A DNA stretch of 64,000 bases from Escherichia coli (lineage in GTDB: Bacteria > Pseudomonadota > Gammaproteobacteria > Enterobacterales > Enterobacteriaceae): assembly GCF_003334405.1 (NCBI RefSeq), contig NZ_QOWM01000009.1. One strand, written 5' to 3'. Positions 62,278 through 63,254 of the stretch are shown here, piece after piece. Below the pieces are notes generated by a model. It did no database searches. It was given only the letters and a program-made list of their open reading frames with translations, and had not been told where the DNA came from. The number at the start of each line of letters is the position of its first letter. Position 1 is the first letter of the stretch. A program made the translations under genes and the position numbers.

Positions 62278-62400
62278 GAATAAAAAGTGAACGTCAGGTT
62301 ACATATATTTCAGATACGTAAAATTAGGTAAAGGGATGGCCTTGTTCTTGAAGGCTATTTAGAATCTCTTCACTTGCTTTTTTTCTGCTCTGTTTGTTAA

Positions 62401-62982
<582 letters not shown>

Positions 62983-62987
62983 TGATT

Positions 62988-63018
62988 TCTCGCGCGGGCA
63001 ATCTTGCCCGCGCTTCTG
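62988..63018 (+). terminator. Putative terminator downstream of ppiA
   Basis: Stem CGCGCGGGCAA-TC-TTGCCCGCGC followed by TTCTGCTCTC (interrupted T-run). Confidence 0.45.
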
Positions 63019-63086
63019 CTCTCCCGGCGTAACCCGGATTTGCCGCTTATACTTGTGGCAAATGGACACGTTCAGGGAGGCATCAA

Positions 63087-63254
63087 GTGAAGAAACTCAC
63101 CGATAAGCAAAAGTCCCGTCTCTGGGAGCTTCAGCGTAATCGTAATTTTCAGGCCAGTCGCCGTCTTGAAGGCGTCGAGATGCCTTTAGTCACTCTTACT
63201 GCCGCAGAGGCTTTAGCGCGCCTTGAAGAGCTGAGGAGTCACTATGAGCGATAA
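63087..63254 (+). CDS. yhfG: Small antitoxin-like partner of Fic (YhfG, 55 aa)
   Basis: Manual translation from GTG 63087 preceded by SD AGGGAGG: (M)[54 protein letters not shown]. Contains S-x3-E-G (SRRLEG). 3' end overlaps the fic start by 11 nt. Confidence 0.8.

Follow-up and report, generated by a model that had tools for sequence, protein, structure and literature searches.

Fic of Escherichia coli is the founding member of the FIC family. The systems described so far that most resemble the pair formed by Fic and its small partner YhfG fall into three groups. The prototype of class I FicTA modules is VbhA–VbhT of Bartonella schoenbuchensis (PDB accession numbers 3SHG and 3ZC7), which shares with YhfG–Fic the antitoxin-first operon, the salt bridge between the glutamate of the [S/T]xxxE[G/N] motif and the R2 arginine, and the overall architecture of the complex. 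VbhT matches E. coli Fic with an E value of 6e-33. The respective antitoxins differ in that VbhA folds into three antiparallel helices whereas YhfG comprises two helices and a 10-residue loop, which reflects an 8-residue deletion (PMC5033356). VbhT also differs from E. coli Fic in being an active, plasmid-borne gyrase/topo IV AMPylase that is delivered by a T4SS.

The second system is AntF–Fic-1 of Pseudomonas bijieensis 2P24 (PDB accession number 8WT0; PMC13327609). Like YhfG, AntF is a small α-inh protein of the DUF2559/YhfG family encoded upstream of its Fic partner. The numbering of this complex is identical to that of YhfG–Fic, with S24 and E28 of the small subunit contacting R146 of the large one. 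E. coli Fic aligns to Fic-1 without gaps over residues 1–196 (E = 2e-49), so that the two Fic proteins share their residue numbering. In contrast to E. coli Fic, Fic-1 possesses a canonical catalytic loop, HPFREGNGRAQR, AMPylates GyrB and is toxic, and AntF carrying the E28G substitution loses its protective effect; the E. coli pair is not known to possess any such activity. The third group consists of the class II and class III Fic proteins FICD/HYPE, EfFic and NmFic, in which the glutamate of the [S/T]xxxE[G/N] motif likewise obstructs the R2 arginine; deAMPylation by FICD and EfFic also depends on this glutamate. Unlike YhfG, the inhibitory helix of these proteins is not a separate gene product but resides in the same polypeptide, at its N- or C-terminus.

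The E. coli K-12 pair has itself been described. The yhfG gene was predicted by Makarova et al. in 2009 to represent a Fic-associated antitoxin family (PMC2701414), and Stanger, Harms, Dehio and Schirmer in 2016 renamed the two genes ecficA and ecficT, assigning YhfG as the class I FicA partner of Fic (PMC5033356). The proteins associate into a stable 1:1 complex, as determined by SEC-MALLS, with a Tm of 63 °C (PMC5033356). In the crystal structures (PDB accession numbers 5JFF and 5JFZ) the two helices of YhfG wrap round Fic and the SRRLEG segment protrudes into the Fic active site, where S24 and E28 form bonds with R146 (R2), and R25 with T40 (PMC5033356). The E28G mutant (5JFZ) exhibits a Tm lowered by 10 °C and an unchanged structure, and in the authors' view this substitution may be insufficient to relieve inhibition (PMC5033356). 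Thus, the interaction by co-expression and the E-to-G motif mutant, both of which the initial annotation of the present sequence had proposed as checks, are already in print.

The window analyzed here is a 64,000-nucleotide stretch of E. coli DNA extending from malT to pabA. Close to its 3' end, the coding sequence of yhfG (ecficA) spans positions 63087–63254 of the plus strand, with a GTG start, 55 codons and a TAA stop at 63252–63254. By reading of the sequence, the GTG at 63087–63089 is the earliest possible start downstream of the preceding in-frame stop. A Shine–Dalgarno (SD) element, AGGGAGG (63074–63080, plus strand), is separated from it by the 6-nt spacer CATCAA. The reading frame ends 11 nt inside fic, the overlap being ATGAGCGATAA (63244–63254, plus strand) with the fic ATG at 63244. 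All of these features were read directly from the sequence, and the GTG start, the 55 codons, the SD and the 11-nt overlap are as the initial annotation had given them. The fic (ecficT) gene occupies 63244–63846 of the same strand and encodes a 200-residue FIC-domain protein, the binding partner of YhfG, which scores 430 bits against NCBIfam NF007672 and corresponds to PDB chains 5JFF_A and 5JFZ_A.

The small open reading frame is the annotated E. coli gene yhfG (b3362; EcFicA) and not a new gene. Its product scores 126.9 bits against the NCBIfam equivalog NF007573, for which the cut-off is 77, and residues 2–55 match Pfam PF10832 (YhfG) with an E value of 5.4e-24, the sole Pfam match of the protein. 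The name yhfG, already assigned from the sequence in the initial annotation, agrees with these families and with RefSeq, where the gene order of the region is ppiA–yhfG–fic–pabA. Apart from the tag, the 55 residues are identical to PDB chain 5JFF_B, titled 'Uncharacterized protein YhfG', and chain 5JFZ_B differs only by E28G, so that its motif reads SRRLGG. The yhfG gene is therefore the one studied as EcFicA in K-12 (PMC5033356), without any difference, whereas the crystallized Fic chains 5JFF_A and 5JFZ_A depart from the protein encoded in the window at three positions: Gly2 and His27, where the window (and here MG1655) encodes Ser2 (63247–63249) and Arg27 (63322–63324), and the engineered G55R. 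Over 62900–63900 the identity to E. coli K-12 MG1655 is 100%, and each of the 5,426 complete E. coli genomes contains this 1-kb segment. Over its full length, the window is 99.97% identical to the MG1655-derived record NZ_CP032667.1, with 15 substitutions and a single 5-nt indel between them; the indel lies near 43709 in the yhfY–yhfX intergenic region, and an A/T difference is located at 62291, between tsgA and ppiA. The window is therefore K-12-type DNA that closely resembles, but is distinct from, this record.

Both the observation and its interpretation are thus already published in detail. The gene is annotated, its complex with Fic is solved, the motif is on record, and both the suggested mutant and the mapping of the initiation site are in print, so that nothing new is added on these points. 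The case does show that a small regulatory protein and its mechanism were recoverable from the raw sequence by a first-stage reader. The residual value of the locus lies in the function of E. coli Fic.

The SRRLEG motif occupies codons 24–29 of yhfG (63156–63173, plus strand), at the end of helix 1 (α-inh), and conforms to [S/T]xxxE[G/N], as had been noted from the sequence; the published structures place it in the Fic active site. Taken alone, the motif is weak evidence because a match to [S/T]xxxE[G/N] occurs in 3.8% of 100,000 composition-preserving shuffles of the 55-residue YhfG. A profile built from 26 YhfG homologues matched AntF (8WT0_B), the validated antitoxin of Fic-1, with an E value of 0.0032, aligned across ASxRLEG. 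Together with the published structures and the conservation, translation, promoter, Fic loop and synteny data presented below, this match makes it highly probable that yhfG is the translated and conserved first cistron of a σ38-dependent yhfG-fic transcript, that YhfG is a class I FicA-type partner of Fic, and that the pair constitutes a domesticated FicTA module.

Under the domesticated-module reading, YhfG is a trans-acting inhibitory-helix partner, of the class I FicA type, for Fic. The published structural work showed that it binds Fic 1:1 through a large hydrophobic interface and that the end of its helix 1 enters the Fic active site, where S24 and E28 lock the R2 arginine, R146. By analogy with VbhA–VbhT and AntF–Fic-1, this arrangement would block productive substrate binding. 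Several points weigh against this reading. EcFicT has no known enzymatic activity, so that inhibition is argued by analogy; the complex carrying E28G is structurally unchanged; two reviews, discussed below, ascribe a growth-inhibiting or gyrase-AMPylating activity to EcFicT, in conflict with the primary authors; and VbhA was not detected when the YhfG profile was compared with the PDB.

Conservation was assessed in 81 enterobacterial loci, comprising 80 species-level loci retrieved by means of Fic alone and the MG1655 reference locus (L001). A small open reading frame directly upstream of the FIC-domain gene, on the same strand, in the same operon and in the same relative frame, is present in 81/81 loci. 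Of the 74 loci retained by a first motif filter, 73 show the 11-nt overlap, and inspection by eye showed that the small frames of the other seven loci likewise terminate in frame, 11 nt inside fic. Among the 74 filtered loci the start codon is GTG in 37 and ATG at the same codon in 22, while in the remaining 15 an ATG is present one codon upstream. The yhfG SD core is kept in 79/81 loci. In the yhfG alignment the column entropies at the three codon positions are 27.8, 26.6 and 65.1, and the median dN/dS is 0.10 in the yhfG frame and exceeds 2.5 in each of the two shifted frames. This frame-specific pattern, together with the codon-position entropy, indicates protein-coding selection on yhfG. 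The dN/dS of fic is 0.094, a constraint as strong as that on yhfG. Among 26 diverse YhfG sequences S24 never varies, and E28 and G29 show a conservation of 90% or more. The motif takes the form SxxLEG in 74 of the 81 loci, SRRLEN in three, SRRLER in three and STALDG in one.

Of the rarer forms, SRRLER and SRRLEN occur in Trabulsiella (L039, L046 and L081) and in Kosakonia and relatives (L040, L043 and L048); SRRLER violates the [G/N] position, whereas SRRLEN is the permitted N form. STALDG is found in Edaphovirga cremea (L080), where an aspartate replaces the 'invariant' glutamate beside a fully canonical Fic loop, HPFRDGNGRAQR. An E. coli 55-residue YhfG with the motif SRRLGG (E28G), the same change as in the 5JFZ mutant, is present in NCBI and in Logan on a 28.7-kb contig, and may represent a natural variant or a laboratory strain. 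In Klebsiella pneumoniae and K. aerogenes records of a plasmid collection (H15–H17), tblastn matches to YhfG span residues 1–35 only, with 77–80% identity. The C-terminal helix thus appears much more divergent in those records, since the matches stop at residue 35.

One locus carries an interrupted gene. In Escherichia albertii NBRC 107761 (L005:2336-2503) codon 13 of yhfG is changed from TGG to TGA (W13 to stop) and fic is intact. In nine other E. albertii genomes that encode an identical Fic protein yhfG is intact, with one of them carrying W13R, so that the stop is either strain-specific or an error. For the same reason the allele was rejected as proof that YhfG is dispensable. It could represent a tolerated loss, read-through of UGA by tRNA-Trp, or a sequencing error.

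Translation of yhfG from its GTG has been observed. In the TRAINSPOTTER N-terminomics study (PMC13245402, Table S1 row 826) b3362 is listed as a database-annotated GTG start with Ribo-RET, INRI-seq and elongation evidence and an N-terminal peptide, which provides the evidence for initiation at 63087 that the initial annotation had proposed to obtain by ribosome profiling. Neither of the two outcomes named there as refuting, a lack of interaction between the proteins and a lack of initiation at 63087, was thus borne out by the published experiments. The fic gene possesses its own SD, GAGGAG (63233–63238, plus strand), located inside yhfG codons 49–51 and 5 nt before the fic ATG, and an SD core lies no more than 16 nt from the fic ATG in 69/81 loci. 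Judged from the conserved 11-nt overlap, translational coupling of yhfG and fic is plausible, but coupling would not be required because fic has its own GAGGAG. An RNA structure coupling the two genes was considered and rejected, as the fold of 63150–63265 yields a z-score of −0.42. An 11-nt inverted repeat (63164–63174 and 63219–63229) was likewise discarded, since it is not conserved, with a median of 7/11 positions pairable. By these two measures, the fold z-score and the conservation of the repeat, no conserved mRNA structure masking the fic SD was found.

The placement of yhfG at the head of the transcript follows from published promoter work. A 'fic promoter' fragment served as a strictly σ38-dependent template in vitro (PMC3089606). 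The primers of that study map to 62881 and 63139–63157 of the window, and a BanI site lies at 62901. With the fragment ends given in that study, −157 and +99, +1 falls at C63059 in either case. This start is 5 nt past a σ38 −10 box, TATACT (63048–63053, plus strand), and gives a leader of 28 nt. It follows that the classical fic transcript has yhfG as its first cistron. The hexamer is conserved, with TATACT in 75 of the 81 loci and TATAAT in five more, mostly 38–42 nt before the start codon. The yhfG-fic pair is also RpoS-dependent in strain EDL933 (PMC2907692). The promoter was placed from the published primers and not from a generic σ70 promoter scan, which returned no match in the ppiA–yhfG spacer. 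That result is expected because the promoter is of the σ38 type without a −35 match. Upstream of the promoter, a terminator-like hairpin of ppiA, GCGCGGGCAA-TC-TTGCCCGCGC (62992–63013, plus strand), is formed by a perfect 10-nt inverted repeat followed by a weak T-run, and probably separates ppiA from the yhfG-fic transcription unit.

The signature loop of Fic comprises residues 135–146 (63646–63681, plus strand). H135 and R146 (R2) are kept, but the D/E position is V139, the asparagine is replaced by S141 and R1 by L143, so that the protein does not match the canonical HxFx[D/E]GNGRxxR signature. This degeneration is shared by 73/81 loci. All 81 loci retain H135 and R146 without variation, and position 143 is hydrophobic in 73 of them. 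No auto- or target-adenylylation by EcFicT was observed by the primary authors, even with the motif mutated, and they ascribed the inactivity to the degenerate loop (PMC5033356). In the favored reading, this enterobacterial Fic lineage descends from gyrase-AMPylating FicT toxins and has since acquired hydrophobic residues in place of the Mg-binding acidic residue and R1. The designation of the two genes as an antitoxin–toxin pair in the initial annotation holds for architecture and ancestry but not for the toxin label. With a degenerate loop and no adenylylation detected by the primary authors, 'antitoxin–toxin' here denotes descent and arrangement and not a demonstrated toxin.

A covariation between the two proteins was noted at the same loop. 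Residue 25 of YhfG (63159–63161) is arginine in 72 of the 73 loci in which Fic residue 143 (63670–63672) is hydrophobic, and in none of the eight loci that keep the Fic R1 arginine, where the motif reads SNRLEG, SSALEG, SCLLEG, SQHLEG or STALDG. Together with this pair, Fic position 36 switches between A and E, and position 67 between Y and F. The covariation may reflect a single evolutionary event because the eight R1 loci are the most divergent taxa.

The alternative that survives best, albeit an unlikely one, is that YhfG–Fic is a two-subunit demodifying enzyme, an active hydrolase of the deAMPylase type in which E28 of YhfG is catalytic and YhfG is a subunit rather than an inhibitor. The Fic-1–AntF complex deAMPylates GyrB using only H135 of Fic-1 and E28 of AntF, and the Fic-1 mutants E139A, R143A and R146A keep deAMPylation and are affected in AMPylation only (PMC13327609, 2026). 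EcFicT has lost E139 and R143 and keeps H135 (81/81 loci), YhfG keeps E28, both genes evolve with a dN/dS of ~0.1, and the complex is very stable, with its Tm of 63 °C. On the other side, a literature search turned up no report of such an activity of EcFicTA, no FicT AMPylase is known in K-12 that would leave marks to be removed, and a new hydrophobic pocket conserved in the subgroup suggests a non-nucleotide substrate (PMC5033356). If true, a deAMPylase-only holoenzyme would account for the conservation of an 'inhibitory' glutamate next to an enzyme without a known activity to inhibit, for the vertical inheritance and for the stability of the complex. In stationary phase, a complex of this kind might remove AMP-type marks from GyrB, ParE or some other target; such marks could stem from FicT toxins that arrive with plasmids or conjugative systems. 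The 2026 result on a FicT–FicA deAMPylase makes this one specific E. coli hypothesis directly testable.

It is less probable still that the locus is an active type II toxin–antitoxin (TA) module, in which unbound EcFicT would AMPylate GyrB and ParE, growth would be arrested and cells would depend on YhfG for survival. Homology to VbhT, Fic-1 and AntF and the antitoxin-first overlapping operon are consistent with such a module, and the E. coli fic-1 (G55R) allele causes filamentation, a phenotype that the primary authors left without an explanation (PMC5033356). Two reviews (PMC10886550 and PMC8097203) attribute to EcFicT an inhibition of growth or the AMPylation of gyrase/topo IV. These statements contradict the primary structural paper, which originates from the same group as the source that they cite and reported no adenylylation even with the motif mutant. 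Moreover, the Fic loop lacks the D/E, N and R1 residues that are needed for AMPylation in Fic-1. The E. albertii allele with its intact fic points the same way, though only as a weak hint, since sequencing error or UGA read-through is possible.

The genomic setting also argues against a mobile TA module. Type II TA modules are patchy in distribution, horizontally transferred and often carried on plasmids or islands, whereas yhfG-fic is chromosomal and syntenic. The ppiA gene lies upstream in 80/80 species-level loci and pabA adjoins in 76/80. Stanger et al. (2016, PMC5033356) found the close homologues to be confined to enterobacteria, with conserved synteny and vertical inheritance. A search of a plasmid database yielded seven hits only, four of them in chromosome-sized records (4.8–5.4 Mb) filed as plasmids and none predicted to be mobilizable, and thus gave no evidence for a plasmid-borne yhfG family among close relatives. 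Given the degenerate loop, the lack of detectable adenylylation, the vertical inheritance and the fixed position in the chromosome, the pair is most aptly termed a domesticated FicTA module and not a working TA addiction system.

A role of YhfG mainly as a DNA-binding autorepressor, as in typical type II antitoxins, is very unlikely. Such a role was predicted by Makarova et al. in 2009 from the basic, helical composition of the protein (PMC2701414), and YhfG is indeed rich in arginine and lysine. However, the structure consists of two helices round Fic with no DNA-binding fold (PMC5033356), and the strict σ38 dependence of the promoter in vitro was obtained without YhfG (PMC3089606). The YhfG family is the only Pfam match of the protein, with no DNA-binding domain, and no operator-like inverted repeat occurs between the −10 box and the SD. 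FicA antitoxins in general are without a DNA-binding domain. The idea of a chance, untranslated open reading frame with a coincidental motif, for which only the 3.8% of shuffles could be invoked, has practically no probability left and is refuted by the 81/81 conservation, the frame-specific dN/dS of 0.10, the Ribo-RET, INRI-seq and N-terminal peptide data and the crystal structures.

Some further features of the region were recorded. In two loci (L027 and L035) the distance from fic to pabA exceeds that of the other loci by ~850 nt, implying an insertion between the two genes, and in a third (L065) pabA is absent from the 2.5-kb flank. A search of the whole 64-kb window against Rfam at the gathering threshold gave no match, and PADLOC contains no model matching YhfG. 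Fic (63244–63846), by comparison, matches a candidate phage-defence family of PADLOC, PDC-S04, with an E value of 3.9e-75 and almost full-length coverage.
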